Below, piece after piece: positions 15,560 through 36,330 of a stretch of DNA of 38,953 nucleotides. The number at the start of each line of letters is the position of its first letter. Within the stretch, counting starts at the first letter, position 1. Under the pieces are notes generated by a model. It ran no database searches. It was not told where the DNA came from and worked only from the letters and a program-made list of their open reading frames with translations. The stretch is taken from positions 1 through 38,953 of IMG/VR virus record IMGVR_UViG_3300020045_002563. One strand, 5' to 3'. The DNA comes from a virus (lineage: Duplodnaviria > Caudoviricetes). A program made the translations under genes and the position numbers.

Positions 15560-15614
15560 AAGATAGCGCACTGACCGCTAACGGTCAAGCTATTATTTGC
15601 TGGTCAGAGGAGTT
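15560..15614 (-). promoter_or_regulatory. Leftward sigma70 promoter with upstream FadR-box-like site
   Basis: Minus strand TTGACC (15588-15583), 17 bp, TATCTT (15565-15560); 17-mer TGCTGGTCAGAGGAGTT at 15598-15614. Confidence 0.7.
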
Positions 15615-15641
15615 TAAGAAAAGGCGCGGTTAAGCGCAATT

Positions 15642-15851
15642 TTAATCTCTTGATTTGTGAGTCCACCTGCTTAGCGTATTTATGCCAAGCTTTAGCTTTC
15701 TGCATCCAAACGGAGCTTTAAGGGCAAGAGCCAGCTTCTCAAGCGCCAAACCTATTGCGTACGGCAAACCAAGAACGACTAGCCAGAAAATCAAGTATGG
15801 CAATATCAGCCACCAGCGCCAATTATTAATTGTTTGTTTTTTGATTTTCAT
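15642..15851 (-). CDS. Small membrane protein
   Basis: Hydrophobic segment WWLILPYLIFWLVVLGLPYAIGLAL. Confidence 0.5.
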   Translation of the reverse strand: MKIKKQTINNWRWWLILPYLIFWLVVLGLPYAIGLALEKLALALKAPFGCRKLKLGINTLSRWTHKSRD

Positions 15852-16434
15852 CGACCAGTTCCTTTGTCAATTCTTCAGCCCACAAGCTCATGTAACTAAC
15901 ACCATCAAGCAAGCTGTCATGATGCAGCCTATCCGGGCTGCTGTACTGCCGGACTAGCTTGACCATTGTCAGTAGTAAACAAACATCACTGCCGGTTAAG
16001 TCTTTTCCGGTAGCGGCATTAAACGCATCAGCAGCCGCTTTAAAGCTGCGCTCACCTGCCCCGCTGGCGTCGTACTGCTTGCCGCGCTCAGATTGCACAG
16101 CGGCGCAGGCATTGAGAAATTCGATGGCTGTTTTTGGTTCTGTTGGCTCAAGTGCTGGATAGTGACCTAAGTCATCATCCGTCCTGTTTCTGCCAATATT
16201 GTTGATCCGCTCGTCGGTTTCTGGCCATTCTGTTGAAGTCAACGAAATGGTTGGGCGCAAAGATTCTATTGTTATTTCATCTTCTCTGAATGCAACACCC
16301 TTGCCGAACGCAAAGCGTTCACCACTGACAGCGTATTGATAGCCATTATTAAAAACAAACACAGGTTTACCAGCAGCGCCAACATATCCAAAAGCTACCG
16401 CATCTTTTGGCGCATCATTCCAATCTATTGCCAT
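15826..16434 (-). CDS. DUF6378-like (MazG/dUTPase-like all-alpha) domain protein with an N-terminal phage domain
   Basis: ERGKQYD..ERSF..AADAFNA..G..LT..DVCLLLTMVKLVRQ..HHDSLLDGVSY fits DUF6378. Confidence 0.7.
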   Translation of the reverse strand: MAIDWNDAPKDAVAFGYVGAAGKPVFVFNNGYQYAVSGERFAFGKGVAFREDEITIESLRPTISLTSTEWPETDERINNIGRNRTDDDLGHYPALEPTEPKTAIEFLNACAAVQSERGKQYDASGAGERSFKAAADAFNAATGKDLTGSDVCLLLTMVKLVRQYSSPDRLHHDSLLDGVSYMSLWAEELTKELVDENQKTNN

Positions 16435-16586
16435 GATTTCAACCCCATTTTGATTCGCTTCAAATTCATCTTACACGCCATCTTAATGGCATCCTCTACA
16501 TCTTTCTCGTTCGGCTCGTCACGATTGCGCTCAAGGCATAGCTGCTGCGCTGTGATTAGCTCGAATTCGGTTGGTGGTAGGTTCAT
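16425..16586 (-). CDS. Hypothetical 53-aa protein
   Basis: MNLPPTEFELITAQQLCLERNRDEPNEKDVEDAIKMAC...; ATGA-coupled to the upstream ORF. Confidence 0.45.
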   Translation of the reverse strand: MNLPPTEFELITAQQLCLERNRDEPNEKDVEDAIKMACKMNLKRIKMGLKSWQ

Positions 16587-16807
16587 GGCGCTTTCTCATT
16601 AATGAATTCACACATGGCATTGAATGAGGTTTTATTGCCATCGGGATCAATACCTACATTCCTGCAAAACATTCTTGCTGTGCCACTTCCGCAACCAAAT
16701 AACTCGCTGTATAGCTGCGCGTTTAGCATTGCTTTTTTGCGCTTAATCAAGCGCCTTGCATTTGCCATGATTAGCGCTTTTTCTTTTAATTCCACATTAA
16801 ACTCCAA
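16583..16807 (-). CDS. Hypothetical protein
   Basis: Basic ORF of up to 74 aa downstream of the ssb hairpin; true start uncertain. Confidence 0.45.
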   Translation of the reverse strand: MEFNVELKEKALIMANARRLIKRKKAMLNAQLYSELFGCGSGTARMFCRNVGIDPDGNKTSFNAMCEFINEKAP

Positions 16808-16823
16808 AGCGCCCGAAGGCGCT
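16806..16823 (-). terminator. Hairpin / weak intrinsic terminator downstream of ssb
   Basis: AGCGCC-TTCG-GGCGCT followed by a short T tail on the minus strand. Confidence 0.45.
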
Positions 16824-17012
16824 GCTAGTTAATTAAATGCAGTGCAACAAACGCTTGCAGCTTAACCCGATTGGATCAAACGGAATATCTGGATCGAAGT
16901 CAGGCACTCCACCACCTGATTGCTGCGCTTGTCCGTAAGTCGGATTAGGCTGATTCTGATAGCCTTGCTGCATCGGCTGACCAATCTGCGGCTAATAATG
17001 TGCTGGCGGTTG

Positions 17013-17414
17013 CTAGCGTGGCTGATTGTATGACTGCTGCGGTTGTTGTGGCTGAGCAGGCTGAGCTGATTGTTGCGGCTGCGGTGCTGGCGCTTGTTGT
17101 GGCGCATTAACAAAGCCTAACTTAGCATCAAGCAATTCAATCGACAGGCTCAAGCCGTTTTGACCTTGAAACTGGCGGATCTTCTGCTTATCGCCTGAGA
17201 CTTCAACGACTGCGCCTTCGACCAATGCTTGCTGGTAGAATTGCACTTGCGCCGGAGCTTTGGCGAAAATTACAGCTTCATAATTTGTCCAAGCATCTGA
17301 TTTGGCTTCCCGGTCATAAAATTTAACACCTAAGCGAATGCCGAAGCCTGTTGATTCACCCGCTTGAAATTGCGTTGCGGCTTTGTTTAGTTTGCCGACG
17401 ATTGTTGTACTCAT
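17013..17414 (-). CDS. ssb: Single-stranded DNA-binding protein
   Basis: OB-fold-like N-terminus (TTIVGKL..GIRLGVKFYDRE..WTNYEAVIF..LVEGAVVEVSG) and Q/P-rich linker; follows the exonuclease. Confidence 0.8.
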   Translation of the reverse strand: MSTTIVGKLNKAATQFQAGESTGFGIRLGVKFYDREAKSDAWTNYEAVIFAKAPAQVQFYQQALVEGAVVEVSGDKQKIRQFQGQNGLSLSIELLDAKLGFVNAPQQAPAPQPQQSAQPAQPQQPQQSYNQPR

Positions 17415-18133
17415 TAGATTTTACTCCGTTGTTGTTTTAAATAATCCCAATGCTGACCGAATGTTACGCCTAACTTTTCAAGTGCTGCGTCAAGGTCGGC
17501 GATAAATTGTGGCACCGCATCGCGCAATGTCGCCTGCTTTTTATCGTCTGGATATGTCTCTGTATAGTGCAAGTTGTTTGCGCCTAAGATCACTCTTGGG
17601 TCATAGGTGCAAAAAATATGCTTTTCGCAGCCAGTGCCAAAGATTTGAAATTGCCGCTGCCATTGCCATTCCGGCTTAACTTTATCAAATGCAGCGTGCT
17701 TGATGTGATTAGTGCCATCAAACGGCGCTTTGATTTCGCAGCATACATTGCCAAAAACACCATCAGGACTAACAGCAATTCGCATTGATTGATCTTTGTA
17801 TGTCAGTGGAATTTCTTTAATGTCAGCAAAGCCAAGCGCAGCAGAAAGAGCTGTTCTTGCTTCCGGCTCGTATAACTTACCCCAATCAGTTTGCTTAAAG
17901 TTTGATTCATCGCCTGAATTGCAATTGACAATATCAGAGATAAGCTCGGACATATAAGTTGCGCGTCCATCGGTATCTTTGCCAGCAACAATCTTATCTG
18001 CCTTTGATGCTGTCAAAACGCCTAGGCGCATGATTTTCCATTCAAGCGAGCCTTGCTCTATAGTTGTCGGATCAAATCCAAAAACATTTTCCATTGATTT
18101 AAGCTGCGCCATTGCGCGGTTATAAATGCTCAT
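17414..18133 (-). CDS. YqaJ / lambda-exonuclease family recombination nuclease
   Basis: EQGSLEW..MRLGVLTAS, WGKLYEPEAR, VSPDG, EIKAP, QxQ and YDPR motifs. Confidence 0.88.
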   Translation of the reverse strand: MSIYNRAMAQLKSMENVFGFDPTTIEQGSLEWKIMRLGVLTASKADKIVAGKDTDGRATYMSELISDIVNCNSGDESNFKQTDWGKLYEPEARTALSAALGFADIKEIPLTYKDQSMRIAVSPDGVFGNVCCEIKAPFDGTNHIKHAAFDKVKPEWQWQRQFQIFGTGCEKHIFCTYDPRVILGANNLHYTETYPDDKKQATLRDAVPQFIADLDAALEKLGVTFGQHWDYLKQQRSKI

Positions 18134-18996
18134 TTCTTTTGCCCTAAAGTTTTAATTGCTGATTGAGCTTGTTGCTCGGTTAGTTGACAAATTGATTCGA
18201 CTTTAAGCCAAGCCATCATCTTTGGCTTTTGCTCATCGGCCAATCCGTTGAAGTAATCTGTTAGCCATGCCTCTGACTCTAAACTGATTGGCGTTACATC
18301 GCGCGCAGGATCTTCTTTATTGATACCTTCCCCGCCTTCTGTGTTTAGGTATTCAATAGCATTGTGCAGGCGATCAACTTTAGGCCACATTTTAGCAGCT
18401 CGCTTAACTACGGTTTTGCGGCACATTTCCTCGAAGTCGGTGAACCACGGGCCTTTATTCTGCTTGCCGGACTCGCTGCGGGCTTTAACCGCCAGCAATT
18501 GCTCGATACTCATTTCTTCGGTCAGGTAAGCTCCTGTGGAAGTACGAACAACGCAATAAGCGCCAACTAACTCGCCACGATTGCCAAAGGCGTTGTATTT
18601 GTGCAGAGGTGCTTGGTCAATACCTTGGTTTTCATATGTATCATTTGCATACACAAGCTTAGACTGTCCGAACTCGATTGATCCGGTTGACATAGCCAGG
18701 TGCAGCAAGCCCATGTAAGAAATATCAAGGCAAATCGCACCGCCCCGGGGAACTAGGTAAGCATTCTTGCTGGCAGGGTTTAAGCTAACGCCAATTGCGG
18801 CAGCATTACGTAAAGCATTCTGAACTGACACAGGGTTTTTCTGTGCAACGCCTAAAGCATAGGTATTGGCAGACAGCAACTGCATTGCATAATTAGCTTC
18901 AGCAGGCCAGTTTACCGCATTGTGCGCTGTAATTAATTGCAGACATTCAGGCTCTACGCCTTTCACCATGTCTGGAATTGTCATTAAGTTATTCAT
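18130..18996 (-). CDS. recT: RecT/Red-beta family single-strand annealing protein
   Basis: AAAIGVSLNP..AYLVPR..LDISYMGL, GELVGAYC and PW.TDFEEMCRKTVVKRAAKMWP; GGAG RBS before ATG 18996. Confidence 0.88.
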   Translation of the reverse strand: MNNLMTIPDMVKGVEPECLQLITAHNAVNWPAEANYAMQLLSANTYALGVAQKNPVSVQNALRNAAAIGVSLNPASKNAYLVPRGGAICLDISYMGLLHLAMSTGSIEFGQSKLVYANDTYENQGIDQAPLHKYNAFGNRGELVGAYCVVRTSTGAYLTEEMSIEQLLAVKARSESGKQNKGPWFTDFEEMCRKTVVKRAAKMWPKVDRLHNAIEYLNTEGGEGINKEDPARDVTPISLESEAWLTDYFNGLADEQKPKMMAWLKVESICQLTEQQAQSAIKTLGQKK

Positions 18997-19024
18997 TTCA
19001 TTCTCCACGTTGTTGGTAATGGGT

Positions 19025-19074
19025 AATGTAATGCAAAACTTGCAACTCGTCAAGAGGAGTGTTATATTTTGCAT
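19025..19074. promoter_or_regulatory. Overlapping divergent sigma70 promoters with an inverted repeat
   Basis: Plus strand: TTGCAA (19040-45), 17 bp, TATATT (19063-68) with extended TG. Minus strand: TTGACG (19053-48), 17 bp, TACATT (19030-25). ATGCAAAA (19031-38) and TTTTGCAT (19067-74) are inverted. Confidence 0.72.
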
Positions 19075-19098
19075 GTCAATTAATTAGAGGGTAACAAA

Positions 19099-19590
19099 AT
19101 GACAGATTTAGTAATGATCACCGATGGTCAGCCAACTGCAAACTCTAAAGCGATTGGGGATTTTTTTTGCAAGAACCACAGACACGTTTTAGAAGCAATT
19201 AAAAACTTGGAATGCTCAGAGAGTTTTAGAGAGTCGAATTTTCGACTGTCCTCCTATCGCTCAGCTCAAAACAAGATTTTACCATGTTACGAAATGACGA
19301 AAGATGGATTTTGCTTTTTAGCGATGGGCTTTACCGGTAAAGAGGCGGCGAAATGGAAAGAGGCATACATTAGCGCGTTTAACCAGATGGAGGCCATCAT
19401 TAAATCAAGCGGCGGAATGATGGAACAGATCAACCAGGCGATTAGCATCATGGAGCAAGACAAAGACGTAGCAAGCAAATGCGGGAAAGGACTTGTTGCA
19501 TGGAAGAAAGTTAAGAAAGAGCACGTAAAACAAATTGAGCGCCTAAAAGACGCTGCACAGTTAACGCTCGGCTTCAAGATGGGTGAGTAG
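19099..19590 (+). CDS. rha: Rha family phage regulatory protein
   Basis: NSKAIGDFF.KNHRHVLEAIKNL..YEMTKDGF.FLAMGFTGKEAAKWKEAYISAFNQME is the Rha signature. Confidence 0.92.
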   Translation: MTDLVMITDGQPTANSKAIGDFFCKNHRHVLEAIKNLECSESFRESNFRLSSYRSAQNKILPCYEMTKDGFCFLAMGFTGKEAAKWKEAYISAFNQMEAIIKSSGGMMEQINQAISIMEQDKDVASKCGKGLVAWKKVKKEHVKQIERLKDAAQLTLGFKMGE

Positions 19591-19592
19591 CT

Positions 19593-22473: not shown

Positions 22474-23023
22474 GTGCAAGTTCTGCAAAAAGCCAGCAAG
22501 TAACAGATTTGGGTTGCACACGTTTTGCGATACAGAGTGCGCTTATCAGTTTGCGATCGCGGCAAAGGAAAAGTCAGCATCAAAAAAGCAAAAGGAGTTT
22601 AACGCAGAGACTCGGCGGAGGAAGGTTGCGCTAAAGAGTCGCAGCGATTGGCTGAAAGAGCTGCAAACGGTGTTTAATAAATTTATCCGACTGAGGGATG
22701 ATAAATTGCCTTGCGTTAGCTGTGGTCGATTCCATGAGGGTCAGTGGCATGCAGGGCATTATCTTTCAGTCGGAGCGCATCCAGAGCTTAGATTTAATCC
22801 AATTAACGTGTGGCGTCAGTGTATGCCTTGCAATTCGCACCTGTCAGGCAACCAAGTTAATTACAGAATTGAGCTAATCAAGAGAATCGGGCTTGATAAA
22901 GTTGAATGGTTGGAAGGGCCACACGAGCCACTAAAGCTGACTATTGAAGAAATAAAAACATTGATTGCTGAGTACAAAATGAAGATTAAAGCACACTCCT
23001 CCGACCAGCAAAAAACACCTTGA
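22466..23023 (+). CDS. ninG: NinG (Rap) endonuclease
   Basis: N-terminal Cys cluster, FNKFIRLRD..PCVSCG..WHAGHY.SVGAHPELRF...N...QC..CN.HLSGN. Confidence 0.93.
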   Translation: MPKCKFCKKPASNRFGLHTFCDTECAYQFAIAAKEKSASKKQKEFNAETRRRKVALKSRSDWLKELQTVFNKFIRLRDDKLPCVSCGRFHEGQWHAGHYLSVGAHPELRFNPINVWRQCMPCNSHLSGNQVNYRIELIKRIGLDKVEWLEGPHEPLKLTIEEIKTLIAEYKMKIKAHSSDQQKTP

Positions 23024-23048
23024 CCAATAGCGGGCAGTGGTCAACAAT
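22994..23048 (+). promoter_or_regulatory. Rightward promoter with upstream FadR-box-like site
   Basis: CACTCCTCCGACCAGCA (22994-23010), TTGACC (23020-25), 17 bp, AACAAT (23043-48); 37/44 identical to the 15.6-kb promoter. Confidence 0.6.
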
Positions 23049-23327: not shown

Positions 23328-23626
23328 AAAAGATGAGTGAAGTTTTTAAGTTGCCTAGCAATGTTCTGGTGAATTTAGATAATGAATTGCATGATGATCG
23401 AGGTCGCTTACTGGCTGAGTTCAGCAGCAGACAGTACGCAAAAGCAGCTTCCCACGCAATAAACCATGTTGACGCGCTGGCGGATGCTTTGGAGTTAATT
23501 GTGAATGATTATAATTCATACCGTGCGGTCAATGAAATTGACATGACGGATGATCATTGCGCCAAACTACATCAAAAAATGATTAATGCAGACAAGGCAC
23601 TAGCCGCCTATCGTGGTGATAAATGA
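23324..23626 (+). CDS. Hypothetical protein
   Basis: 100 aa, ATGA-coupled. Confidence 0.6.
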   Translation: MKKMSEVFKLPSNVLVNLDNELHDDRGRLLAEFSSRQYAKAASHAINHVDALADALELIVNDYNSYRAVNEIDMTDDHCAKLHQKMINADKALAAYRGDK

Positions 23627-23784
23627 CCTCCGGCCTACACTACCAACTTAAGCAGCGCGTCAAAAACGGCTACGTTAAGCTGGGTGAGCTCAGACCTAAC
23701 AGTCGGGCGATTGCTCAGCGCTTGCTGGCAGCCGGGGAGATGTATTTGGATCAACGTGGGTATTTGCGCTTAAACGAAATTTAA
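23623..23784 (+). CDS. Hypothetical 53-aa protein
   Basis: MTSGLHYQLKQRVKNGYVKLGELRPNSRAIAQRLLAAGEMYLDQRGYLRLNEI; ATGA-coupled. Confidence 0.45.
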   Translation: MTSGLHYQLKQRVKNGYVKLGELRPNSRAIAQRLLAAGEMYLDQRGYLRLNEI

Positions 23785-24367: not shown

Positions 24368-25357
24368 ATGAACCACGTCGTTAGCTTTTCACTTGGAAAA
24401 ACATCCGCATGCATGTCAATAATGACGCAGCAGATGCAGGGCGTTTATAAGTGCATTTCCATTATGGAAAGCTGCCTAAAGTCAGGTGAAATACAAGGTA
24501 GCGTTGAGTATATCTTGATGGATACATCGTGGGAACATCCGCTGAGTTATGATTTTGGTAGGGCGTTAGAAAAAAAGCTTGGTATAAAAATAACAGTATT
24601 GCGCGGAGACTTTAATCAGGATCTTGGAGAGGGCCACAGCTATACGGTTCACGATTTAAAAAACATTACAACAACGCCCCTGCAAGGCGGCGCATTCTAC
24701 GGCATGGTTAAAAAATACGGAGTGCCAACAGTCATGACTCCGTGGTGTACTAGCAGGATGAAGGAAGAGACGCACGACAAATACTGTGATAACAAGTATG
24801 GAAAAGGTAACTATGTCACATGGCTTGGTATGAGAGTTGACGAGCCAAAGAGATTGAAGAACGTCGGTAAAAGCCCATTGTTGCGATACTTTTCAGAAAT
24901 ATCAGACATGACAAAAGCAGACGTTAACGATTTCTGGTCTGACATGGATTTTAATTTAGAAATACCGCCATTCCTTGGCAACTGCGTTTTTTGCGTAAAG
25001 AAATCAAAAAACAAAATAGCATTGGCGGTAAGGAGGGAGCCTGAACTTGCCAAGCAATGGCAGAAACTGATTGATGATGCTCCAGATATCAAGTTCCTAA
25101 CTCTAAAGAAAAATAAAGACGGTCAGATTGATTTTGTTTCTCAGGCCAGTGGAGAGCCCGATGAAATTGTTATTTCTGCCAAATCCGCAATGTACAGGGG
25201 GTACAGAAGCTTTGGTGATATTATAAAAATGTTTGAGCAGTGGAGCGATCAAGATATTGAAGATTCCATCAGGAGCATGAAAGACGGCGACTCAGATGGA
25301 TGTGGCGAGTCATGCGAACCGAATCTTAACAATCAACTAGATTGGGTAGGCGAATGA
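24368..25357 (+). CDS. PAPS-reductase-like PP-loop ATPase (adenine nucleotide alpha-hydrolase family)
   Basis: VVSFSLGKTSA PP-loop, MDTSWEH, WCTSRMK, WLGMRVDE, GNCVFC and C-terminal CGESCE; AGGAG RBS before ATG 24368. Confidence 0.8.
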   Translation: MNHVVSFSLGKTSACMSIMTQQMQGVYKCISIMESCLKSGEIQGSVEYILMDTSWEHPLSYDFGRALEKKLGIKITVLRGDFNQDLGEGHSYTVHDLKNITTTPLQGGAFYGMVKKYGVPTVMTPWCTSRMKEETHDKYCDNKYGKGNYVTWLGMRVDEPKRLKNVGKSPLLRYFSEISDMTKADVNDFWSDMDFNLEIPPFLGNCVFCVKKSKNKIALAVRREPELAKQWQKLIDDAPDIKFLTLKKNKDGQIDFVSQASGEPDEIVISAKSAMYRGYRSFGDIIKMFEQWSDQDIEDSIRSMKDGDSDGCGESCEPNLNNQLDWVGE

Positions 25358-25572
25358 CAACAAACACCGAAGCCCTAACAATCTGCCTAGCCCGCCGACT
25401 AGCAATACAGCACAAAGAGCCACAACAAGCGGCAATAGTTCAAACAGCAGCCAGGATGTTGGAGCAATCGACCGACGAGCAAACTAGGAGCGCCTGCCTT
25501 GATTTGATTGCAGCAACTCCGGCCGAGCGACAGCGCATTGTTGCGTTTGCTGAGGCGATACTTTTGACGTAA
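25354..25572 (+). CDS. Hypothetical protein
   Basis: ATGA-coupled, 72 aa. Confidence 0.5.
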   Translation: MTTNTEALTICLARRLAIQHKEPQQAAIVQTAARMLEQSTDEQTRSACLDLIAATPAERQRIVAFAEAILLT

Positions 25573-25610
25573 CTGGTCAGCTTTGTTCAGCGCCGCAACG
25601 GTGGTAATGT
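25571..25610 (+). promoter_or_regulatory. FadR-box-like site overlapping -35 plus extended -10
   Basis: AACTGGTCAGCTTTGTT (25571-87), 17 bp, TG-G-TAATGT (25605-10). Confidence 0.5.
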
Positions 25611-25632: not shown

Positions 25633-25863
25633 ATGGGTTGGATTAGTGTTGATGAGCAAATGCCAACTGTTGGCGATAATGGTTGCGTCAGGGCGTTAGC
25701 GTTTTGTCAATCAAACAAATACGTTGGAGAAATGGAGTATACATTCCCACAATATGCAAAAACAGAAAATGGTAAAGCGCCTCGCTGCCAGCGAGGCGGC
25801 CGAATTAGACATTGGGCAGTCACCCACTGGATGCCACTACCACCAGCCCCGGTGACAGAATGA
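25633..25863 (+). CDS. DUF551-like protein
   Basis: WISVDEQMP...VTHWMPLPPAP signature; GGAGGT RBS. Confidence 0.85.
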   Translation: MGWISVDEQMPTVGDNGCVRALAFCQSNKYVGEMEYTFPQYAKTENGKAPRCQRGGRIRHWAVTHWMPLPPAPVTE

Positions 25864-26039
25864 GCAACCCCGGAGCATGGAAACTAACGCCGCTAACACC
25901 ATGCAGCGTTGAGCGAGTAGTGCGCGAGCTAGACGAGGCGTTCAGTCGTGCAAATCCAAAACACAAGCGGGTTAAGTCGCCCGCTGAACAGTTTGACGAT
26001 AGCCACGCGGAGTGGCTGATTAATGGGAGAGAATGTTAA
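25860..26039 (+). CDS. Hypothetical protein
   Basis: ATGA-coupled, 59 aa. Confidence 0.45.
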   Translation: MSNPGAWKLTPLTPCSVERVVRELDEAFSRANPKHKRVKSPAEQFDDSHAEWLINGREC

Positions 26040-26227
26040 TGGAAATAGTATGTTTAGGCGGTAAAATTGCTCTTACGCTGGTTTATTTGAGTTTATCGTT
26101 TATGTTTGTGTGCAATACATTTGGGTTTTCAACTAGCGATAACATTAAGACCTTTGTGGTTGCTTGCTTCTTTGGCGGCGTCGCAGTTGGAGTGGCTTCA
26201 ATAATTGCATTGGTGTGGACGCTATGA
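26033..26227 (+). CDS. Small two-TM membrane protein
   Basis: Two hydrophobic segments; GGAG RBS. Confidence 0.55.
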   Translation: MLMEIVCLGGKIALTLVYLSLSFMFVCNTFGFSTSDNIKTFVVACFFGGVAVGVASIIALVWTL

Positions 26228-26397
26228 AACTATTCAAACTAGCCTGCACAACACGAGCAGGTGATTTTATCGAAACAGAGACCAGCGCAACCAACATGAC
26301 CGGCGCAATCGAGGCGTTTATTTATGAGCTTGGACTGATGCATAGCACGTACATGGATGATGTTGTTGAGTTGGATATTTCGGAGGTGCAGCTATGA
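26224..26397 (+). CDS. Hypothetical protein
   Basis: MKLFKLACTTRAGDFIE...; ATGA-coupled at both ends. Confidence 0.5.
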   Translation: MKLFKLACTTRAGDFIETETSATNMTGAIEAFIYELGLMHSTYMDDVVELDISEVQL

Positions 26398-27032
26398 ACG
26401 ACATCATAAACCAACAGCGCGAACGCATAGCCGAACTTGAGCGCGAAAAGGCTGAGTTGGTGGCGCAGGTTGAGGTGCTGCGTGGAGCGCTAAAATGCTT
26501 ATCTTTTGAGGCTCAAATCAGCGGTGGTGTTGCAGGAAGAAATGAATCTTTAATTTATGCAGTTGATTTTGCTCATAAAGTTTTGGTTAAAGTAACACCA
26601 ACCCAATGCCTAAACCAAATCATTAAAGATTACGTCATGGGTATGGTTGTTTCTGTTGATGTATCAATTTCAGAAGAAACTGCTTACAAAAGAATTTTCG
26701 CAAAAATTATTGAGCCTATGGAGTGTAGTGGGGTTAAAAACGATATTGTGCTTTTGTCGGAAGCCAGCAAGCTATGTGTCGATGACTCTCGAATTAAGCA
26801 TCAGCTTGAGTTTCATGGTGAGAATAGAGATGCAATATGTTCTTGCGGCAAAGATCCATATCACTGGGCGCATCCAGCTGATAGTGTCGATTTTGATAAA
26901 TACCTAAGCCAAATCAAGGTAGAAGCTGGTCGTGCTGGGTATGTTCAGGCAATACACGATTTAGGCTATAAGGATTCGCGTTTAACTGATAGGGCCAACA
27001 AATACGCCGAGCGCGTAGCTAAGGGGGAGTGA
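26394..27032 (+). CDS. Mosaic Ea22/Ead-like accessory protein
   Basis: N-terminal coiled coil (QRERIAELEREKAELVAQVEVLR) typical of lambdoid Ea22-like mosaics; GGAGGT RBS. Confidence 0.55.
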   Translation: MNDIINQQRERIAELEREKAELVAQVEVLRGALKCLSFEAQISGGVAGRNESLIYAVDFAHKVLVKVTPTQCLNQIIKDYVMGMVVSVDVSISEETAYKRIFAKIIEPMECSGVKNDIVLLSEASKLCVDDSRIKHQLEFHGENRDAICSCGKDPYHWAHPADSVDFDKYLSQIKVEAGRAGYVQAIHDLGYKDSRLTDRANKYAERVAKGE

Positions 27033-27259
27033 TGGATAAGCGTGATTTTAAAATTCTTTGGCGCGATGCCCAGCACGGCAGAAGCTGCATAGGAGTTGAG
27101 TGTCCTTTTTGCAAAATGGAGTCAACTGTTTACATTTGGTCTTTGTGTGGCGGAGGCAAGCGCTGCGAAAATAAAAAATGCGACGCTAAATTTGATAAGT
27201 TTGGCGGTGCTGTTTTGGTTTGCAGAAAGAAGACAAACAACAGGAAGTCAAAATCATGA
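27029..27259 (+). CDS. Zn-ribbon protein
   Basis: CPFC..WSLCGGGKRC....C motif. Confidence 0.6.
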   Translation: MMDKRDFKILWRDAQHGRSCIGVECPFCKMESTVYIWSLCGGGKRCENKKCDAKFDKFGGAVLVCRKKTNNRKSKS

Positions 27260-27495
27260 ACAAATCACAAAAAGAGTTTGAGGCGTGGGCTAAAGATAAG
27301 CTTTGCCTCGATAAACGACATGACGGAACTTACGAGTGGCAATCTACGTTATCAGCATGGCTAGGTTGGCAAGCCTCCCGGCAAGCGCTGGTTTTTGAGT
27401 TGCCATCATCGCTAGAGCTTTACAACTCGCCAGCAAATGAAGTGCTTGAAGCTGTTCAGGATGCACCTGATGCAGCAGGAGTGAGATACAAATGA
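27256..27495 (+). CDS. Conserved small phage protein
   Basis: EFEAW...Y....AW.GWQASR is a common phage motif. Confidence 0.65.
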   Translation: MNKSQKEFEAWAKDKLCLDKRHDGTYEWQSTLSAWLGWQASRQALVFELPSSLELYNSPANEVLEAVQDAPDAAGVRYK

Positions 27496-27617
27496 AGCCG
27501 ATCGGTAAGTATGGCTTGTTATTTTCGCTATGCTGTATCGGCTTTTTATTTTTCGGCGCGTGGATTCAGGCGCTAATAATGCTGCCGTTTGCCATTCTTT
27601 GTTGGTCGGACAACTAG
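27492..27617 (+). CDS. 41-aa hydrophobic peptide
   Basis: MKPIGKYGLLFSLCCIGFLFFGAWIQALIMLPFAILCWSDN; ATGA-coupled and ends at a terminator. Confidence 0.45.
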   Translation: MKPIGKYGLLFSLCCIGFLFFGAWIQALIMLPFAILCWSDN

Positions 27618-28137: not shown

Positions 28138-28138
28138 T

Positions 28139-29656
28139 ATGCCAGTCATTAATCAAGGCGTGCGCGAAATCGTAACGCTGCAAGTAGGTCAGCCAATCTT
28201 TGTCACTTCAACCGGGTCAGCTGCGTTTACGTATGACCAAGAGCTAGTCAGCTCGCCGCGCACAGTCGCATCAGATAGCGGCGAAGTGCGCATCGGGCCA
28301 TTTGAAATTCAGGTGGATGTTACTATCAATCCGGTTGTTGGGTCGGTATCTTACAGCTACCACCCTAGCGAGTTCAAGTCAAGTGCATCAACCACCATTG
28401 ATGTATCAGAGGCTTTAAGTCAGCTGGCGTTGCCTGTTGGCGCTCAAAGCGTATTATTATTCGGAGATAGCTTTTCCGATGCTCAACAGTCGCAAAATCC
28501 GGTATATCTAAATGAATGTTTATACATCTCATGTTGGCGATTCGTGTTTGGTCGATACGGCTCTAACCTGTACATCAAAGCCAATGAATCACAAGCTGGT
28601 GCCAACGTTGACGATTTAGAGTTGAGATATCCATCAGCACTACAGTCGCTAACAGACTGGGTTTTTATGGACATCGGGCAAAACGATTTTTATAACAACT
28701 TCACTGCAGATTATGTTGCTGCAAAAATGCAAAAGTTCGTTAGTGGGTTTTTGAATCAAGGCCGGAAAGTGATCGTGCTTGGCTGTTTTCCTCAAGTAAC
28801 GACACGCGCAAGCTTTACTGCTGCGCGCAGCCTGGAATCTCAAAAGTACAACAAAATCATGTTTCAATGGGCGCGCACGCAACGCGGAGTTTATTTCATT
28901 GATACGTTCTCATTTGCTGCAGATTGGGCAGACACAACAAACGGCGGTGCATTAACATCAATGTTTAGCACGGATGGTATTCACTTGTCCGTAGTAGGTA
29001 CGATTGCGACTGCTGACGCTGTGTGTAAAGTGCTTGACCGGTACACGCCAAGAAATCCTGACTTATACTTAGGGCAGCTAAATCCAACGGTAATGAATGT
29101 CGCCGAATCGGTGATGTTTGGCACGGCAGGCACCAACGGCACCGGATCCACTGGTCAAGTTGCTAGCGGGTGGACTGCAAGTCGCTCAGCTGGCGCCAAC
29201 GGGGCCATAGTTGCTAGTAAAATTACGCCAGTTGGTCAGCGTCTAACTATTACCTTAAGCGCAACAAACGGTGATAGCACATTCAGATTCTTCAACGGCA
29301 TGAACTCCGGATTAACGGCTATTGTCGGACAGTCTGCAGTAAGTCGCACAAAAATGCGCATCAGAACAACATCGGGTAAGGCTTATTTAAAACAAATGTC
29401 CACCCGCATGTTCTGGACTGATGGAGTTACAAACTTCAACCAGTACAATGGGCGCGTTCAGGGTAGCTTTTCAGGGCTTGGTGACGAGTCTTTTGATACT
29501 GACCTGATCGTGCTTGATACATATCCGCTAGCCGTAACCACAACTGCGTCAGGGTCGTCTGGTTATTACTTTGAAATAGAAATTAACTCAACAGCCGGCG
29601 CAGTGATTGAAATAGACATTTATTCGGTTGATGTTTATGCTCAACCTACTGTTTAG
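28139..29656 (+). CDS. SGNH/GDSL hydrolase with N-terminal beta domain and C-terminal jelly-roll-like domain
   Basis: All four SGNH blocks: FGDS, QAG, GQND and DGIH. The C-terminal half is G/S/T-rich and beta-rich. Confidence 0.82.
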   Translation: MPVINQGVREIVTLQVGQPIFVTSTGSAAFTYDQELVSSPRTVASDSGEVRIGPFEIQVDVTINPVVGSVSYSYHPSEFKSSASTTIDVSEALSQLALPVGAQSVLLFGDSFSDAQQSQNPVYLNECLYISCWRFVFGRYGSNLYIKANESQAGANVDDLELRYPSALQSLTDWVFMDIGQNDFYNNFTADYVAAKMQKFVSGFLNQGRKVIVLGCFPQVTTRASFTAARSLESQKYNKIMFQWARTQRGVYFIDTFSFAADWADTTNGGALTSMFSTDGIHLSVVGTIATADAVCKVLDRYTPRNPDLYLGQLNPTVMNVAESVMFGTAGTNGTGSTGQVASGWTASRSAGANGAIVASKITPVGQRLTITLSATNGDSTFRFFNGMNSGLTAIVGQSAVSRTKMRIRTTSGKAYLKQMSTRMFWTDGVTNFNQYNGRVQGSFSGLGDESFDTDLIVLDTYPLAVTTTASGSSGYYFEIEINSTAGAVIEIDIYSVDVYAQPTV

Positions 29657-29697: not shown

Positions 29698-29747
29698 ATT
29701 GCCGCCTAATCACCCGAGGGGGTGGACTCGAAGAAGTCGCAGATTGA

Positions 29748-29788
29748 CACTGGTCGGACTAGTCAAAAGCGATAGATTGAGTTAGGAT
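29748..29788 (+). promoter_or_regulatory. Near-palindromic FadR-box-like operator and promoter of the RNA region
   Basis: CACTGGTCGGACTAGTC (29748-64) overlaps TTGACA (29744-49); 18 bp downstream is TAGGAT (29783-88). Confidence 0.6.
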
Positions 29789-30017
29789 TGTTTTGTTGAT
29801 ACCGCTGCAAAGACTAATAATCTGTTGCAGGGACAGCCGAAGCCCATCGTTAACGGGCGCTAAAAATCGCGCAAACAGCCAGCGCAACAAGTTATAAGAT
29901 GGCTGATAGAATCTGGGTGGTTTATGTAATAACGCAAGCGTTGGCCGCATAGCGCATAACGTGGCAAGAGAGCAAGTCGAGAATTTATGATCATTAGTTT
30001 TAAAAATTGACAAGTTG

Positions 30018-30076
30018 CCGCAGACGCGGTGCAGTTTATTGGTTTGGTGTTTTTGTGGTTCGATTCCACACTGTGG
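30018..30076 (+). pseudogene. tRNA-like remnant (acceptor-like stem plus T-arm only)
   Basis: CCGCAG pairs with CTGTGG; T-arm GTGG-TTCGATT-CCAC; no recognisable D or anticodon arm. Confidence 0.4.
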
Positions 30077-30084
30077 GTAATCCA

Positions 30085-30139
30085 GTTATTGTTTGGCTAG
30101 CAGATAGATAAGCTGCGCTGGTTCGAATCCAGAATAACG
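30085..30139 (+). pseudogene. Minimal tRNA-like element
   Basis: GTTATT/AATAAC outer stem, GCAG..CTGC hairpin, and T-arm CTGG-TTCGAAT-CCAG. Confidence 0.45.
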
Positions 30140-30223
30140 TAAAAGCCTGCAGAATGGCAGAAACACCAAAACCAATGAGCAGCAGTCTGACAGGAGTTGC
30201 GCTGGTAGTCTCAGATTTATAAC

Positions 30224-30293
30224 GCAGGTTCGCTTAATGGTAGAGCCGATGTGAATACACATCAGAATGGGTTCGATTCCCGTAACTTGCACC
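30224..30293 (+). pseudogene. Degenerate tRNA (cloverleaf with non-canonical anticodon loop)
   Basis: Acceptor GCAGGTT/AACTTGC, D arm GCTT..AATGGTA..GAGC, GATGT-GAATAC-ACATC (6-nt loop), T-arm ATGGG-TTCGATT-CCCGT; ends ACC-T. Confidence 0.65.
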
Positions 30294-30299
30294 TTATGC

Positions 30300-30378
30300 G
30301 CCTCTTAAGCTAATGCGGTAATAGCAACCGGCTCATAACCGGCAGGACAGGGTTCGACCCCCCCCCGGAGAGGCACCA
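30300..30378 (+). tRNA. tRNA with CAU anticodon (Met or lysidine-Ile2), aberrant T-arm
   Basis: Acceptor GCCTCTT/GAGAGGC plus ACCA, D arm GCTA..TAGC, anticodon loop CTCATAA (CAT 30334-36), GGTTCGA; C9 run in the T-arm. Confidence 0.8.
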
Positions 30379-30574
30379 CATAACGCACGGCGTTTGGCAA
30401 CAATGGCGGATAACACGATTCAGAGTAGCAGCTCTCGAACTGCGGAGTGCCTAACGTGTTTGAAATTGTTCGCAGGCGGGGTTTTTACCGGTTATCCGGG
30501 TTTCGCCCTTCTCACTCAGGCAGCTGATTACTGAAGCCGACCAAGCAGCCATAATAAGATTCATGCTTCACTTC

Positions 30575-30599
30575 ACCCGCTTCGGCGGGTTTTCTTTTT
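30575..30599 (+). terminator. Intrinsic terminator closing the RNA region
   Basis: ACCCGC-TTCG-GCGGGT-TTTCTTTTT. Confidence 0.88.
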
Positions 30600-30603
30600 G
30601 TGC

Positions 30604-30643
30604 CACTGGTCGGATATGTTATTGCCATCAGCTGTGGTAGTTT
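30604..30643 (+). promoter_or_regulatory. FadR-box-like site overlapping -35 plus extended -10
   Basis: CACTGGTCGGATATGTT (30604-20), 17 bp, TG-G-TAGTTT (30638-43), immediately after a terminator. Confidence 0.6.
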
Positions 30644-30673
30644 TGCGGCTGGTTATTAATTGGAGATATTGAG

Positions 30674-31603: not shown

Positions 31604-31632
31604 ACTAACCAGGCTAACATAGGAGATAAGCA

Positions 31633-32207: not shown

Positions 32208-32463
32208 CTCAGCTCAGTACAAGGTTTATACGTGGTTTGTCGGCCTATCAGCGGGGTATCAAATCAGCGCAAGCAAGCCTGAGTGGCTGCCTGAGTGGGT
32301 TCAACCTGTTATGCTTCAACTGCATGAAATATCGTGGCTTGAATCACTAACGGCGTGGGGCGTAATTATGCTGGCGGTTGAGCGCACATTTGCAGCAATT
32401 ATCAGGTTTAATCAGTGGCGACGCGAGCGGCAGCTTGCTAAACGCCGAGCGCGCACAGTCTAA
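32200..32463 (+). CDS. Small membrane protein with basic C-terminus (holin-like)
   Basis: Two hydrophobic segments followed by RFNQWRRERQLAKRRARTV; abuts terL. An alternative GTG start lies at 32146. Confidence 0.55.
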   Translation: MLDSAQYKVYTWFVGLSAGYQISASKPEWLPEWVQPVMLQLHEISWLESLTAWGVIMLAVERTFAAIIRFNQWRRERQLAKRRARTV

Positions 32464-34146
32464 ATGAAACGCCTAACAGCCGCAAAGCTGGATGCTGTTG
32501 AAAGTCTTGTCACTAAAAAGTCAGAACGCACTTATCAAACCGTTTTCGGCATCGTTTGCCCGAAATCCGGCTTTCTTTACTCTCTGAAATACGATTCAGG
32601 CGACTGGATCAAGACTCTTGAGACACCAGACGTTTACATTGCCGCCAAGCTTGAGCGGGTTCTGAAGAGCAAAAAGCGCTTTATCGGTGTATTCGGTGGG
32701 CGCGGCTCAGGTAAGTCAGTTCAGTTGCACGATATCGCCATAGCTGGCGTTAAAGACCTTGGAGATAAGGTGTACTGCTTGCGGGAGTTCCAGAACTCGC
32801 TGGAAGATTCCGTCCACTCACTTATCACCAAAGAGTGCGACCGGCTAAAGTTTGAAGGGTTTAGCACCCAAAACAACATCATCTTCCATGAGTCGGGCGG
32901 TGAGTTTAAATTCAAAGGCTTGGCGCGCAATCCAGCGTCTATTAAGTCAGCCCACGGATTCCGGCGCTTTATCGTTGAAGAAGCGCAGACCATCAGCGAT
33001 GAATCACTCAAGCACCTGACACCAACAGCGCGAAATGAAGCCAAGGCAGGCTTGCCGGTCAAGTTTAATGACGCTCCAGAACAGGAAGAAGAACTGTACG
33101 CGCTGAAAAACGTACAGTTGATATTCATTGCCAACCCGGCATCATCTGCGGACCCGCTCAGCAAAAAGTTTATCACGCCCTTCCAAGAGCATTTAGACCG
33201 TGATGGATTCTATGAGGATGATCTCCACCTAATCGTCATTATGAACTACGACGATAATCCATGGTTTGAAGATTCAGGACTGGAAGCTGAGCGCGCACAT
33301 GATGAAGCAAACCTGCCTCCAGCAACTTACAAGCACATATGGGGCGGCGGATTTAACGACCATGTTGATAACGCCCTAATACCTACCGAATGGTTTAACG
33401 CTGCCATTGATGCGCATATCAAGCTTGGGTTTGACAAAAAAGGTTCAATCATCACGGCTCACGACCCATCAGACCAAGGCCCAGATCCAAAAGGTCAGTG
33501 CATCCGGCATGGTTCAGTGATTACTTCAATCCGTGAAATCATGCACCAGGATGCGTTTGACGGCTGCACCACGGCACTTAATGAAGCATTTGACGCCAAG
33601 GCTGATCAATTCGGTTGGGATGGTGACGGACTAGGCGCGACATTGCGCAATCACATCACAAACGTGTCGGCTGGTAAGCGATTGCAGCTGTTTATGTTCA
33701 AAGGCTCTGAAAGCGTAGACAATCCCGATGCGGTGTATTCTTTTGAGAATAAAGGCGTTCCAATTCGCGACCCTAAGACCAACAAAGACACGTTTAAGAA
33801 CAAGCGTAGCCAATATTACTGGGCTTTGCGCGATCGGTTTTACAACACTTACCGGGCAGTCGTGCGCGGCGAGTATATCGACCCAGACCAGATGATCAGC
33901 TTATCGACTGACGGCATTGAAAACATCGACAAGCTGCGCTCTGAGGTTTGTCGCATACCACTGAAGCCAAACAATAACGGCTACATTCAAATAATGAGCA
34001 AAATTGAAATGAAAGCCCTGAAGATACCATCCCCGAACATGGCAGACGCGCTGATGATGTCGTTTGCAAACCCTGCTATAATAACGCAAAATACAAGTCA
34101 ACCGCAGTTCAGGCCACAGCCTTTACGAGTCATGGGGCGCAGATGA
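32464..34146 (+). CDS. terL: Terminase large subunit
   Basis: Walker A GGRGSGKS, Walker B FIVEEAQ, FIANP coupling motif, nuclease AHDPS..D and SPNMADALMM. Confidence 0.95.
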   Translation: MKRLTAAKLDAVESLVTKKSERTYQTVFGIVCPKSGFLYSLKYDSGDWIKTLETPDVYIAAKLERVLKSKKRFIGVFGGRGSGKSVQLHDIAIAGVKDLGDKVYCLREFQNSLEDSVHSLITKECDRLKFEGFSTQNNIIFHESGGEFKFKGLARNPASIKSAHGFRRFIVEEAQTISDESLKHLTPTARNEAKAGLPVKFNDAPEQEEELYALKNVQLIFIANPASSADPLSKKFITPFQEHLDRDGFYEDDLHLIVIMNYDDNPWFEDSGLEAERAHDEANLPPATYKHIWGGGFNDHVDNALIPTEWFNAAIDAHIKLGFDKKGSIITAHDPSDQGPDPKGQCIRHGSVITSIREIMHQDAFDGCTTALNEAFDAKADQFGWDGDGLGATLRNHITNVSAGKRLQLFMFKGSESVDNPDAVYSFENKGVPIRDPKTNKDTFKNKRSQYYWALRDRFYNTYRAVVRGEYIDPDQMISLSTDGIENIDKLRSEVCRIPLKPNNNGYIQIMSKIEMKALKIPSPNMADALMMSFANPAIITQNTSQPQFRPQPLRVMGRR

Positions 34147-36212
34147 AAAAGTTAGAATTTGACAAAATTAATAAAATGTTCAGCTGTGACTACACTCACA
34201 ACATGGTTACGCGTGAACGTGCAGCGGCTGACAATACGTTTTTCTGGATAACCCACTGGGACGACTCACTGCTGAGCGATAGCCAGCTGCAGTACCGCGG
34301 CGAGTTCGACTTATTGCGCAAAGCATTCAGAGACATCATGTCAGACCTTCGTGCTAACCCAGTTCAAGCTGACTTTGAACCGGTTGATGGCGCTGGGCCA
34401 GATGAAGCTGATTTGATTGATGGGCTGTACCGCACAGATTGCCGCAAGAACACCAGTAAGGAAGCCTTCGACTACGCATCTATTGAACAGGTCGTGTGCG
34501 GGCTTGGCGGATGGCGCTTATGTACTGAATACGAATCTGACAATATGGGAACGCGCAATCAAATCATTGTGCGAAAGCCCATCTATGAATTTAATAACTG
34601 CGTATTCTTTGACAGCAACGCCAAGCGCATTGACAAGTCAGACGCCAAGCGATGCACGGTGCTTACCGCGTACAGTGTCGAAGGTTACTGCGATTTAGTC
34701 GAAGAGATGACAGGCGAGCGGCCAGACGAATCGTCAGCCGGCAGCAGCTTTGCAACTCCGGAAGATGGCTATTCGTTCCCGTGGATCAACACATCAGGAA
34801 CTAACACCATCATATGGGTTGGCGAGTTTTATCACCGCTATAAAGCCAAGGTTCGGATCCAATACCTGCAAGACCCGCTTGGTGAGCTGCAAGTTTATAT
34901 GCAAGAGCAGGGCAAAAAAGCCGGTGAAGTTGATGAAGAAATGTTGACTGCCGGATTTGTGCTGCAGGAAGAAAAAGAAGTCAATCAGTGGGTTGTTGAT
35001 AAATACCTACTGAGCGGCGACGGCATCATTGGCAAGCCTGAGCGCATTGCAGGCAAGCACATTCCGGTCGTACCTGAGTACGGGGACCGCGCATACATTC
35101 AGGGCGTTGAGCATTATGAAGGCATTGTAAAAGCAGCCAAAGACCCGCAGATGCTGCGAGATTTCGCCATGTCATATCTGGCAGACATTGTTGGACGTTC
35201 GCCACGGGTAAAGCCGGTGTACTACGCCGAGCAAATTCAAGGCTATGAGTACATGTACAGCGAGACGGGCGCGGATAACAATTATCCTTACCTGTTGCAG
35301 AACAGGATAGCCGCTGACGGCTCACCGTTGCCGCTTGGGCCTATTGCCGCAACACCTGAGCAGCCAGTACCAACTGCCTTAAGCCAGCTCATGGGCGAGG
35401 TGCGCATGGCGGTTGAAGATGTAGCTAATCCGGGCTTACCAAACAGCATTAGCGACCCGGACTTGTCAGGCAAAGCTCTTAACACTTTGGTCGCTCAGTT
35501 TGACCAGCAAAGCATGGTGTTTCAGGAAAACAGGAAGTATGCCATTCGCCGAGATGCCGAGATTTACGCCTCAATCGCATCTGAGATTCTGGACGTACCG
35601 CGCAAGGTTATCGCAACGTCAGCAGACGGCAACCGCAAAGAGGTCAATGTCATGCAGTCGGTGATCGACATTGACACTGGAAAGATTAAAGTGCTGAACG
35701 ATTTGCGATTTTCTCAGTTTGAAGTTTACGCCGACGTCAGCAAGCCATATTCAACAAGCCGCCAAGAAGCGCGAGATGCGCTCATGGAGCAGTTAAGCAC
35801 AGCGCTAAGCACTGACCCGCAACTGGCGCAGATTATCCAACTGAAGTTGCTGCGTTTGCAGGATGGTCAGGACATGCAAGACCTTCGCGATTGGGCAGGC
35901 GTACAGCTTGTACTGCGCGGCATCCGCAAGCCTGAAACCGACGAAGAAAAACAAGCAGTGGCAGACGCTCAGGCGCAACAAGGCGAGCAACAAGATCCAA
36001 ACATGGCTCTTGCCATGGCTGAACAGATGAAGGCTGAAAACGGAGCAATCAAGAACCAGATTGATGAGTTCCGTGCTCAGACTGACCGAATGGCTGTTAT
36101 GGTTGACGCAGAAAAAGCGGGCGCCGACATTAATTACAAGCAGCTGCAAGGGCGCTCATTGATGGTCAATGATGCGGTTAAACTAAGGGGTAGTGCAAAT
36201 GGCATGCAGTAA
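34143..36212 (+). CDS. Portal protein (P22 gp1-like)
   Basis: 689 aa with YRGEFD, FFDSNAKRIDKSDAKRC, HIPVVPEYG, EGIV..AKDPQ motifs; follows terL. Confidence 0.93.
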   Translation: MKKLEFDKINKMFSCDYTHNMVTRERAAADNTFFWITHWDDSLLSDSQLQYRGEFDLLRKAFRDIMSDLRANPVQADFEPVDGAGPDEADLIDGLYRTDCRKNTSKEAFDYASIEQVVCGLGGWRLCTEYESDNMGTRNQIIVRKPIYEFNNCVFFDSNAKRIDKSDAKRCTVLTAYSVEGYCDLVEEMTGERPDESSAGSSFATPEDGYSFPWINTSGTNTIIWVGEFYHRYKAKVRIQYLQDPLGELQVYMQEQGKKAGEVDEEMLTAGFVLQEEKEVNQWVVDKYLLSGDGIIGKPERIAGKHIPVVPEYGDRAYIQGVEHYEGIVKAAKDPQMLRDFAMSYLADIVGRSPRVKPVYYAEQIQGYEYMYSETGADNNYPYLLQNRIAADGSPLPLGPIAATPEQPVPTALSQLMGEVRMAVEDVANPGLPNSISDPDLSGKALNTLVAQFDQQSMVFQENRKYAIRRDAEIYASIASEILDVPRKVIATSADGNRKEVNVMQSVIDIDTGKIKVLNDLRFSQFEVYADVSKPYSTSRQEARDALMEQLSTALSTDPQLAQIIQLKLLRLQDGQDMQDLRDWAGVQLVLRGIRKPETDEEKQAVADAQAQQGEQQDPNMALAMAEQMKAENGAIKNQIDEFRAQTDRMAVMVDAEKAGADINYKQLQGRSLMVNDAVKLRGSANGMQ

Positions 36213-36255
36213 GACCAAGAAGAAAGGCGGAACTAAGCCGCCTAAAATGAAGTGA
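36199..36255 (+). CDS. 18-aa Lys-rich peptide (MACSKTKKKGGTKPPKMK)
   Basis: AAGGGG RBS at 36185-90, overlaps the portal stop, and ends just before a terminator. Confidence 0.45.
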   Translation: MACSKTKKKGGTKPPKMK

Positions 36256-36259
36256 AGTC

Positions 36260-36281
36260 AAGCCCCGTTATGGGGCTTTTT
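36260..36281 (+). terminator. Intrinsic terminator after portal
   Basis: AAGCCCC-GTTAT-GGGGCTT-TTT. Confidence 0.85.
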
Positions 36282-36283
36282 CT

Positions 36284-36330
36284 TGCTCATCCGACCACCG
36301 CTTGACACTCCAGCCATTCACGCCGATAAT
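36284..36330 (+). promoter_or_regulatory. Strong sigma70 promoter for scaffold/coat with abutting FadR-box-like site
   Basis: TGCTCATCCGACCACCG (36284-36300), TTGACA (36302-07), 17 bp, GATAAT (36325-30). Confidence 0.75.

Follow-up and report, generated by a model that had tools for sequence, protein, structure and literature searches.

The window analysed here is a stretch of 38,953 nucleotides (nt) of tailed-phage DNA (Duplodnaviria; Caudoviricetes; 47% GC) that makes up the entire IMG/VR record IMGVR_UViG_3300020045_002563. It encodes a P22-like podovirus (terminase, portal, scaffold, coat, head closure, ejection proteins, tailspikes) together with lambdoid early genes running leftward (recT, exonuclease, ssb) and rightward (rha, rep, dnaB, ninB, ninG). 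Distributed across this genome are 17-base-pair (bp) palindromes resembling the operator of the bacterial fatty-acid regulator FadR, and these boxes, with the promoters predicted beside them, are the subject of this report. A first-pass annotation had listed seven such 17-mers, all of which are present in the window exactly where it placed them. The features are listed below; box classes are named by the number of nucleotides separating the box from the -10 hexamer, and ranks refer to the scoring matrix described in the next section.

15598..15614, minus strand: FadR-type box, +32 class, 9 nt upstream of the -35 TTGACC; rank 5
15560..15588, minus strand: predicted sigma-70 promoter of box 15598, TTGACC at 15588-15583, TATCTT at 15565-15560; 9/12 matches
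22994..23010, plus strand: FadR-type box, +32 class, within the final codons of ninG; rank 10
23020..23048, plus strand: predicted sigma-70 promoter of box 22994, TTGACC at 23020-23025 (9 nt after the box), AACAAT at 23043-23048
25571..25587, plus strand: FadR-type box, +17 class, occupying the -35 place; extended -10 TG-n-TAATGT at 25605-25610; rank 4
29748..29764, plus strand: FadR-type box 18 nt upstream of the -10 TAGGAT (29783-29788); rank 1
30604..30620, plus strand: FadR-type box, +17 class, with a terminator immediately before it; extended -10 TG-n-TAGTTT at 30638-30643; rank 2
36284..36300, plus strand: FadR-type box abutting a near-consensus promoter (TTGACA 36302-36307, GATAAT 36325-36330) of the scaffold and coat genes; rank 3
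27600..27616, plus strand: candidate box, not accepted; rank 20; inside a 41-amino-acid (aa) open reading frame (ORF), terminator next, no fitting plus-strand promoter
29790..30600, plus strand: non-coding unit with degenerate transfer RNA (tRNA)-like elements, terminator 30575-30590 at its end
19025..19068, no single strand: divergent early promoters that overlap, one for the recT side and one for the rha/rep/dnaB side; FadR-type box absent

Box 15598 heads a leftward accessory unit extending from 15515 to 11730 (pentapeptide, YopX and three helix-turn-helix (HTH)-like ORFs), box 22994 the unit from 23088 onward, box 25571 the stretch from 25634 to 27617, and box 29748 the non-coding, tRNA-like region. 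Box 30604 heads ORF 30674 and probably terL and the portal gene, while the promoter abutted by box 36284 has 11/12 consensus matches. The first-pass annotation had two of the boxes following a terminator; boxes 30604 and 36284 do follow terminators, which are predicted at 30575-30590 and 36260-36278. Its statement that all sites lie at gene boundaries holds for the five non-coding boxes but not for 22994, in the last codons of ninG, or for 27600, in the 41-aa ORF.

Motif identity and genomic position

A FadR matrix was derived with a palindromic Gibbs sampler (width 17) from ten E. coli fad, fab, acc and iclR upstream regions, and it recovered the fadH and fabA sites without a consensus as input. 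Both sites had been cited in the first-pass annotation and were correct: fadH has a 13-nt core in common with 36284, and the fabA site matches, also in Table 2 of PMC4537474. Scoring of 38,937 window positions with this matrix placed 29748, 30604, 36284, 25571 and 15598, in that order, at ranks 1-5. All five of these hits are non-coding, compared with 6.9% of positions overall (p=1.6e-6, at a cut-off of 9.5 picked after the ranks had been seen), and at a lower cut-off of 7.5 the non-coding fraction was 5/11 (p=5e-4). Shuffled non-coding DNA attained five hits in 0/5000 shuffles, and 0/2000 column-permuted matrices yielded five non-coding hits out of five. The genome-wide count alone is marginal, with five or more hits in 3/300 whole-genome shuffles; the signal is therefore carried by position, as the first-pass annotation had argued. 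Site 27600 was classed as non-coding in these counts, with no effect on tests whose cut-off exceeds its score.

When the non-coding DNA of the window and of four relatives with boxes (24 kb in all) was searched de novo, the top motif was AACTGGTCAGACCAGTT. This motif correlates with the E. coli matrix at r=0.96 and is identical to the FadR consensus given in PMC9329746. Against 29.5 kb of E. coli sequence, its four best matches fall on the fadI site, two fadL sites and the fabB site. The intergenic motif search and genome scan proposed in the first-pass annotation thus returned the FadR consensus and top hits in non-coding DNA, bearing out its identification of the motif. With the phage-derived matrix, box 22994 rises to rank 2, although that matrix was trained on 22994 itself. 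Six of the seven sites match the 17-bp operator palindrome, site 27600 being excepted. This candidate was dropped as an operator: its score is weak, it lies in the final codons of a 41-aa membrane ORF (27492-27617) and a terminator follows immediately. The weak score and the location make it probably a chance match. The ORF in question is unannotated and hydrophobic, and it overlaps the preceding stop codon.

Another host regulator of the GntR family with a related palindrome, such as PdhR, might bind the boxes. GntR paralogues are numerous in hosts, the phage matrix gives the E. coli PdhR site a score of 9.2, and some boxes in the related genome G308 carry PdhR central bases. However, 9/10 E. 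coli FadR sites outscore the PdhR site (11.6-19.6), and among phage half-sites the PdhR-type T at position 3 occurs in 0/74 and A at position 8 in 4/74. The phage pattern also precedes fabV, fadI, fadE and a thioesterase gene in bacterial genomes. A PdhR-type binder is on these grounds highly improbable.

In the bacterial genome G162, which has fadR, two sites with the phage pattern directly precede fadI and fadE. A pattern combining the box with a -10 matched 29/121 genomes of the G162 family, and the 26 downstream ORFs scanned from 30 loci comprised seven fabV genes, one fadI and one thioesterase gene among their identified products. FadR scored above the cut-off in 5/5 of the fabV-box genomes tested. 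FadR-type boxes stand 16-17 nt before the fabV -10 in L429, L431, L438, L439, L444, L445 and L451, all from one gammaproteobacterial family, and fabV is predicted to be a member of the FadR regulon there, a relationship not met in our literature search. A FadR-type box was also seen upstream of sspA, encoding stringent starvation protein A, in two bacterial genomes (L248:1500 and L456).

Spacing to the -10 element and exchange with -35 hexamers

In the window, a -10-like hexamer that lacks a good -35 follows boxes 25571 and 30604 at 17 nt and box 29748 at 18 nt, and boxes 15598 and 22994 lie 32 nt before a -10 and 9 nt before TTGACC. Across 12 box-bearing records, a set of 49 sites picked without using spacing had a -10-like hexamer at 17 nt in 18 cases, at 32 nt in eight and at 42 nt in seven, with at most six at any other spacing. 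In 62 records not selected for boxes, a strict -10 was found at 16-18 or 31-32 nt in 17/38 strong hits against a background of 15.6%, a comparison in which homologous sites are not independent and in which 14/62 records have any strong hit. In IMG/VR, a perfect core combined with TAnnnT was found in 107 stretches at 17 nt versus 60 at 22 nt (86 versus 49 unique). Several contigs carried four or more, and a hexamer at 17 nt was also present in 7/49 control sites.

These distances resemble those of host promoters. The E. coli iclR and acpP promoters have a box followed by 9 nt and TTGCA, the same layout as the phage +32 class, and fabA and fabB, whose FadR sites are given in Table 2 of PMC4537474, have the box at +18. 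The predicted fabV promoters have it at +16 (four) or +17 (three). With their predicted -10 hexamers, the window's boxes appear to stand at the +32 and +17/+18 spacings of FadR-activated host promoters. The +24 spacing of box 36284 is without an exact host counterpart, since E. coli accB has the box at +27 and fabI at +28. In PMC9329746, FadR is described as activating when bound upstream of the -35 and repressing when bound over the -10/+1 region.

Related phages retain several of the boxes. The scaffold-promoter box is kept amid diverging flanks in L001, L002 and L005 and is degenerate in L006 (coat identity to the window is 94% for L001 and 68% for L005), and box 30604 is kept at L001:150 with altered flanks. 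A search with the scaffold-promoter architecture matched 28 stretches, three of them from this phage group, the rest scoring at most 9/16 against the consensus. The geometry of box 15598 is repeated in L121:3853, L042:5076, G307, G308, G309 and G310. At the end of ninG, a box is present in G306, G307, G309 and G310 at +41, +17, +42 and +42, respectively. Behind these ninG-end boxes the encoded C-terminal peptides differ and ninG is read in two frames with respect to the box, indicating selection on the DNA.

At other promoters the box has been exchanged for a -35 hexamer. The close strain L002 (93% identity over terL and portal) has, at the 29748 promoter, the same -10 and following bases with TTGCCA at 17 nt where the box stood; at 30604, TTGACT-16-TATATT after the terminator replaces the box. 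At the ninG end of G311 and G312, the promoter is a plain one with TTGACC. Conservation in related phages, which the first-pass annotation had put forward as a check, was therefore found for L001, L002, L005 and the ninG ends, but not for G311, G312 or two promoters of L002. Alternation of box and -35 at the same promoters is expected of an activator site, and these natural swaps, together with the fixed spacings, indicate that the boxes may serve activation, a point that goes beyond the first-pass annotation.

The same data bear on the alternative that FadR binds mainly to repress, or is itself titrated, so that structural promoters are damped or phage DNA soaks up FadR, de-repressing beta-oxidation and lowering fatty-acid synthesis. 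The promoter abutted by box 36284 would, with its 11/12 matches, need no activator, and a promoter following the coat gene has its box in or on the core promoter in L006:4462, L005:3717 and L001:11744, resembling the repressed fad promoters described in PMC9329746. Yet most boxes lie at set distances upstream of -10 hexamers and are exchanged with -35 hexamers, and since a sink would need no fixed spacing, the fixed spacing weighs against titration. Moreover, the post-coat box stands at +17 for a divergent promoter in L001 and L005. Repression or titration as the main role is, in our assessment, unlikely. In L001 a minus-strand gene cassette (10209-11744) lies between coat and adaptor, with its box placed at +17 relative to the cassette promoter while overlapping the core of the opposing structural promoter; this box could activate one side and repress the other.

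That the sites are chance matches or non-functional relics would agree with the marginal genome-wide count, with the probable chance origin of 27600 and with the existence of close relatives that manage box-free. It is at odds with the non-coding enrichment, the fixed spacing and the conservation amid diverged flanks and across reading frames, and we consider it barely credible.

Candidate binders and the host

Among the 61 ORFs of the window, no match was found to integrase, CI, Cro, Q, FadR, GntR or Mor/Ogr families. The first-pass annotation had likewise seen no GntR protein, CI, Cro or Q, and for GntR and FadR the absence extends to a six-frame profile search. A FadR N-terminal profile found none in the six-frame translation of the window or at 26 phage loci (best E 1.5, compared with 1.8e-7 for a PdhR control), and PF00392 had no match in 15 records.

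The window is not a complete genome. Positions 1-121 and 38833-38953 form a 121-nt inverted terminal repeat with the appearance of a fold-back made during assembly within the head-tail adaptor gene, the final codons of which are the first bases of the window. In the relative L001, about 2.5 kb separates coat from head closure. The fold-back and this longer interval indicate that about 2 kb, including a tail-gene promoter, is missing, although IMG/VR lists the record as 100% complete. For the missing segment, absence of a regulator is consequently shown only through the L001 counterpart, which has no GntR domain.

A phage protein might nonetheless read the boxes as a late or middle activator, the candidates being the HTH-like or similar products of 11730, 12140, 14371 and 23623, Rha, the DUF7740 protein, or a mini-FadR in the missing segment. 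With Q absent, the internal units need some switch, and three HTH-like ORFs are encoded in the window (11730, 12140 and 14371), the first of which had been named in the first-pass annotation as an alternative binder. The distribution of these genes argues otherwise: the complete box-bearing genomes G306 and G307 are without homologues of the three, while in G311 and G312, which lack boxes, there are homologues of 11730, 14371 and the 53-aa ORF 23623, and box-less G311 has Rha. The HTH ORFs, 11730 included, were rejected as binders because their presence does not track the boxes across relatives. Of 562 window frames, a lysozyme-like gene and the DUF7740 gene (25354) were the only ones common to G306 and G307 and absent from G311-G313. 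DUF7740 is thereby shared by three near-complete box-bearing genomes; however, it was not found in box-bearing G309 and G310 (both incomplete), it has no informative fold match, and neither it nor the lysozyme-like gene has an HTH match. Finally, the motif reproduces FadR's own variants. A phage-encoded activator is accordingly rated very unlikely.

The 53-aa ORF (23623-23784) is kept in six relatives at 36-51% identity and resembles a short winged-helix fragment. It appeared GntR-like by eye, but it had no Pfam hit, its only PDB match was a designed helix, its Atlas hits were below 0.9, and it is present in box-less relatives too; it was set aside as a binder.

Several searches addressed the host. 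The sole named matches of ORF 30674 are Alishewanella phages, and DNA matches to Rheinheimera phages were confined to the pentapeptide repeat. No close RecT was found in 401 genomes of the G162 family (two matches, 50% and 42%). In a class-wide sample FadR was over the cut-off in 4/300 genomes, with one unscored, a result uninformative on the host. The only close relative in the genome collection is L042 (JAGKWQ010000029.1), a 5.5-kb early-region contig with a +31 box; in L042 a KilA-N-like gene, recognised by eye, is found where rha stands.

The divergent early promoters at 19025-19068 have no cI or cro gene between them. The surrounding stretch (19025-19075) is flanked by an inverted repeat, TGCAAAA...TTTTGCA. 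The stretch is kept in G306-G309 and G311, and it emerged as the second motif in de novo discovery; it may be an operator to which Rha or some other phage protein binds. At the two +32 promoters (15572-15587 and 23020-23044), a common spacer motif, TAGCGG-CAGTG, was observed, along with an inverted repeat that includes the -35 in each; these features may reflect a second operator or duplication of a promoter.

Within the non-coding unit of about 800 nt (29790-30600), the tRNA-like element at 30224-30291 has a shortened anticodon loop yet scores above the tRNA cut-off of Rfam, and that at 30300-30378, with a CAT anticodon and a CCA end, falls below it. Further T-loop-like motifs lie near 30055 and 30122, and ARAGORN called no tRNA in the unit. 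Elsewhere in the window, a GDSL/SGNH hydrolase gene (28139-29656) directly follows terS, and a PAPS-reductase-like gene (24368-25357) lies within the accessory block.

Proposed regulation and comparison with known systems

Taken together, the six boxes match the FadR operator and probably bind the host FadR dimer free of acyl-coenzyme A (acyl-CoA), which would activate sigma-70 promoters in a phage without a recognisable Q, CI or GntR protein. A number of observations weigh against this reading. The window sites differ from the nearest E. coli site at 4-5 positions and score below many in the relatives. The -35 and -10 assignments are predictions, and the -10 weight matrix was a provisional one. 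The -10 hexamers at 25571 and 30604 have 3/6 matches with an extended TG and fail the strict -10 test, and boxes 25571, 30604 and 36284 fail the strict geometry test, which the coding hits 13632 and 20232 pass. In G162 the phage pattern had 10 sites versus 11 for the reversed control. Five named phages of Alishewanella, Rheinheimera, Pseudoalteromonas and Vibrio had no box excess over control, and the gene-sharing relatives G311 and G312 have no box hit of 12 or more anywhere; since some relatives lack boxes, these are dispensable in this phage group. The metagenome-assembled genome holding L042, labelled Cellvibrionaceae, has no FadR_C hit, which speaks against host FadR unless the contig is mis-binned, as is possible. 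The distant coat relatives Vibrio phage 1.275.O and Pseudomonas phage AH02 also gave no hit of 12 or more.

If host FadR is the activator, regulation may proceed as follows. The box-free divergent promoters at 19025-19068 would start the recombination and replication genes in any host state; the control of early units proposed in the first-pass annotation would apply to internal early units only, and not to the main early promoters. Where the spacing is +17/+18 (25571, 29748, 30604), FadR would stand in for a poor -35 and make contact with RNA polymerase, in the manner of fabA, fabB and fabV. Where it is +32 (15598, 22994) FadR would act from upstream, the A-rich gap being a likely site for the C-terminal domain of the polymerase alpha subunit, as at iclR and acpP, and the +42 spacing in relatives, one helical turn beyond +32, would permit the same upstream action. 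FadR would in this way activate the internal accessory units (15598, 22994, 25571), the RNA unit (29748) and the unit towards terL and portal (30604). At 36284 and the relatives' post-coat promoter, where the box touches or enters the core promoter, modulation could be of either sign.

Long-chain acyl-CoA releases FadR from DNA, as stated in PMC4537474 and PMC9329746, and the former reports that the E. coli and Shewanella proteins are interchangeable in vitro. The FadR-dependent units would be strongest at low long-chain acyl-CoA and weaker when the host imports fatty acids, so that phage output would be expected to fall on fatty-acid import. Either this fatty-acid response was selected for, or FadR may simply be a usually available activator. 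A broader scenario, which we offer tentatively, is that phages lacking a repressor and an antiterminator replaced late or middle control by the host's fatty-acid sensor, with box and -35 as interchangeable alleles and the acyl-CoA pool setting burst size or lysis timing; their genomes may also titrate FadR, pushing the host to fatty-acid breakdown.

Were host FadR confirmed as the activator, the phage would sense host long-chain acyl-CoA by way of operators borrowed for many of its promoters, with no need to encode a sensor, phage productivity would be tied to environmental lipid supply, and a metabolic regulator would join the short list of host factors controlling phage transcription. The box/-35 swaps in close strains offer natural controls. 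The FadR operator is already known, and so is the action of host factors at phage promoters; this genome adds the exchange of box and -35 in a close strain, the occurrence of both the iclR-type +32 class and the +42 class at a single orthologous promoter, the match of +17 to host fabV, and the finding of no mini-FadR. Literature searches, with subscription journals and supplements outside their scope, returned no report of FadR-controlled phage promoters and no paper on Rheinheimera FadR.

The phage boxes share their 17-bp palindrome (r=0.96) with the FadR-activated promoters of fabA and fabB (E. coli, Shewanella) and of iclR and acpP (E. coli), and they share the arrangements as well, with the box 9 nt before the -35 as at iclR and acpP or in the -35 place as at fabA and fabB. 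Among the phage boxes the common spacing is 17 rather than the 18 of fabA and fabB, and 17 fits the predicted fabV promoters; the +42 class was not seen among the E. coli promoters examined. Unlike those of host FadR promoters, the phage targets are accessory, RNA, packaging and capsid genes, not lipid genes.

Late control in P22 and the lambdoid phages is exerted by Q antitermination, and Mor/C of Mu and Ogr of P2 are activators. The window has P22-like head and tail genes and lambdoid rec, rep and nin genes, and its promoters are like those of the Mor/C and Ogr systems in combining a weak -35 with a putative upstream activator site. In contrast to all of these, the site in the window belongs to a host protein. 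Host factors do act at phage promoters, among them IHF at lambda, LexA at some prophages and OxyR at Mu mom. These cases resemble the present proposal in that a host regulator is used instead of or beside the phage's own, but they are architectural or stress-related and concern one or few sites, whereas here a metabolite sensor would act at no fewer than six promoters.

A further precedent is the horizontally acquired LEE1 promoter of enterohaemorrhagic E. coli, which FadR activates, giving a fatty-acid response, according to PMC7845647. There FadR serves as activator of acquired genes, as is proposed here, but LEE1 is the one master promoter of a chromosomal island, while the phage has a set of predicted promoters across its genome. 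For lambda, PMC4195576 gives only a software-predicted 8-nt fadR element. The small RNA co293 of the e14 prophage regulates fadR, as cited in PMC12803456. In that system a phage RNA regulates FadR; the arrangement proposed for the window would run in the opposite direction, with FadR regulating the phage.

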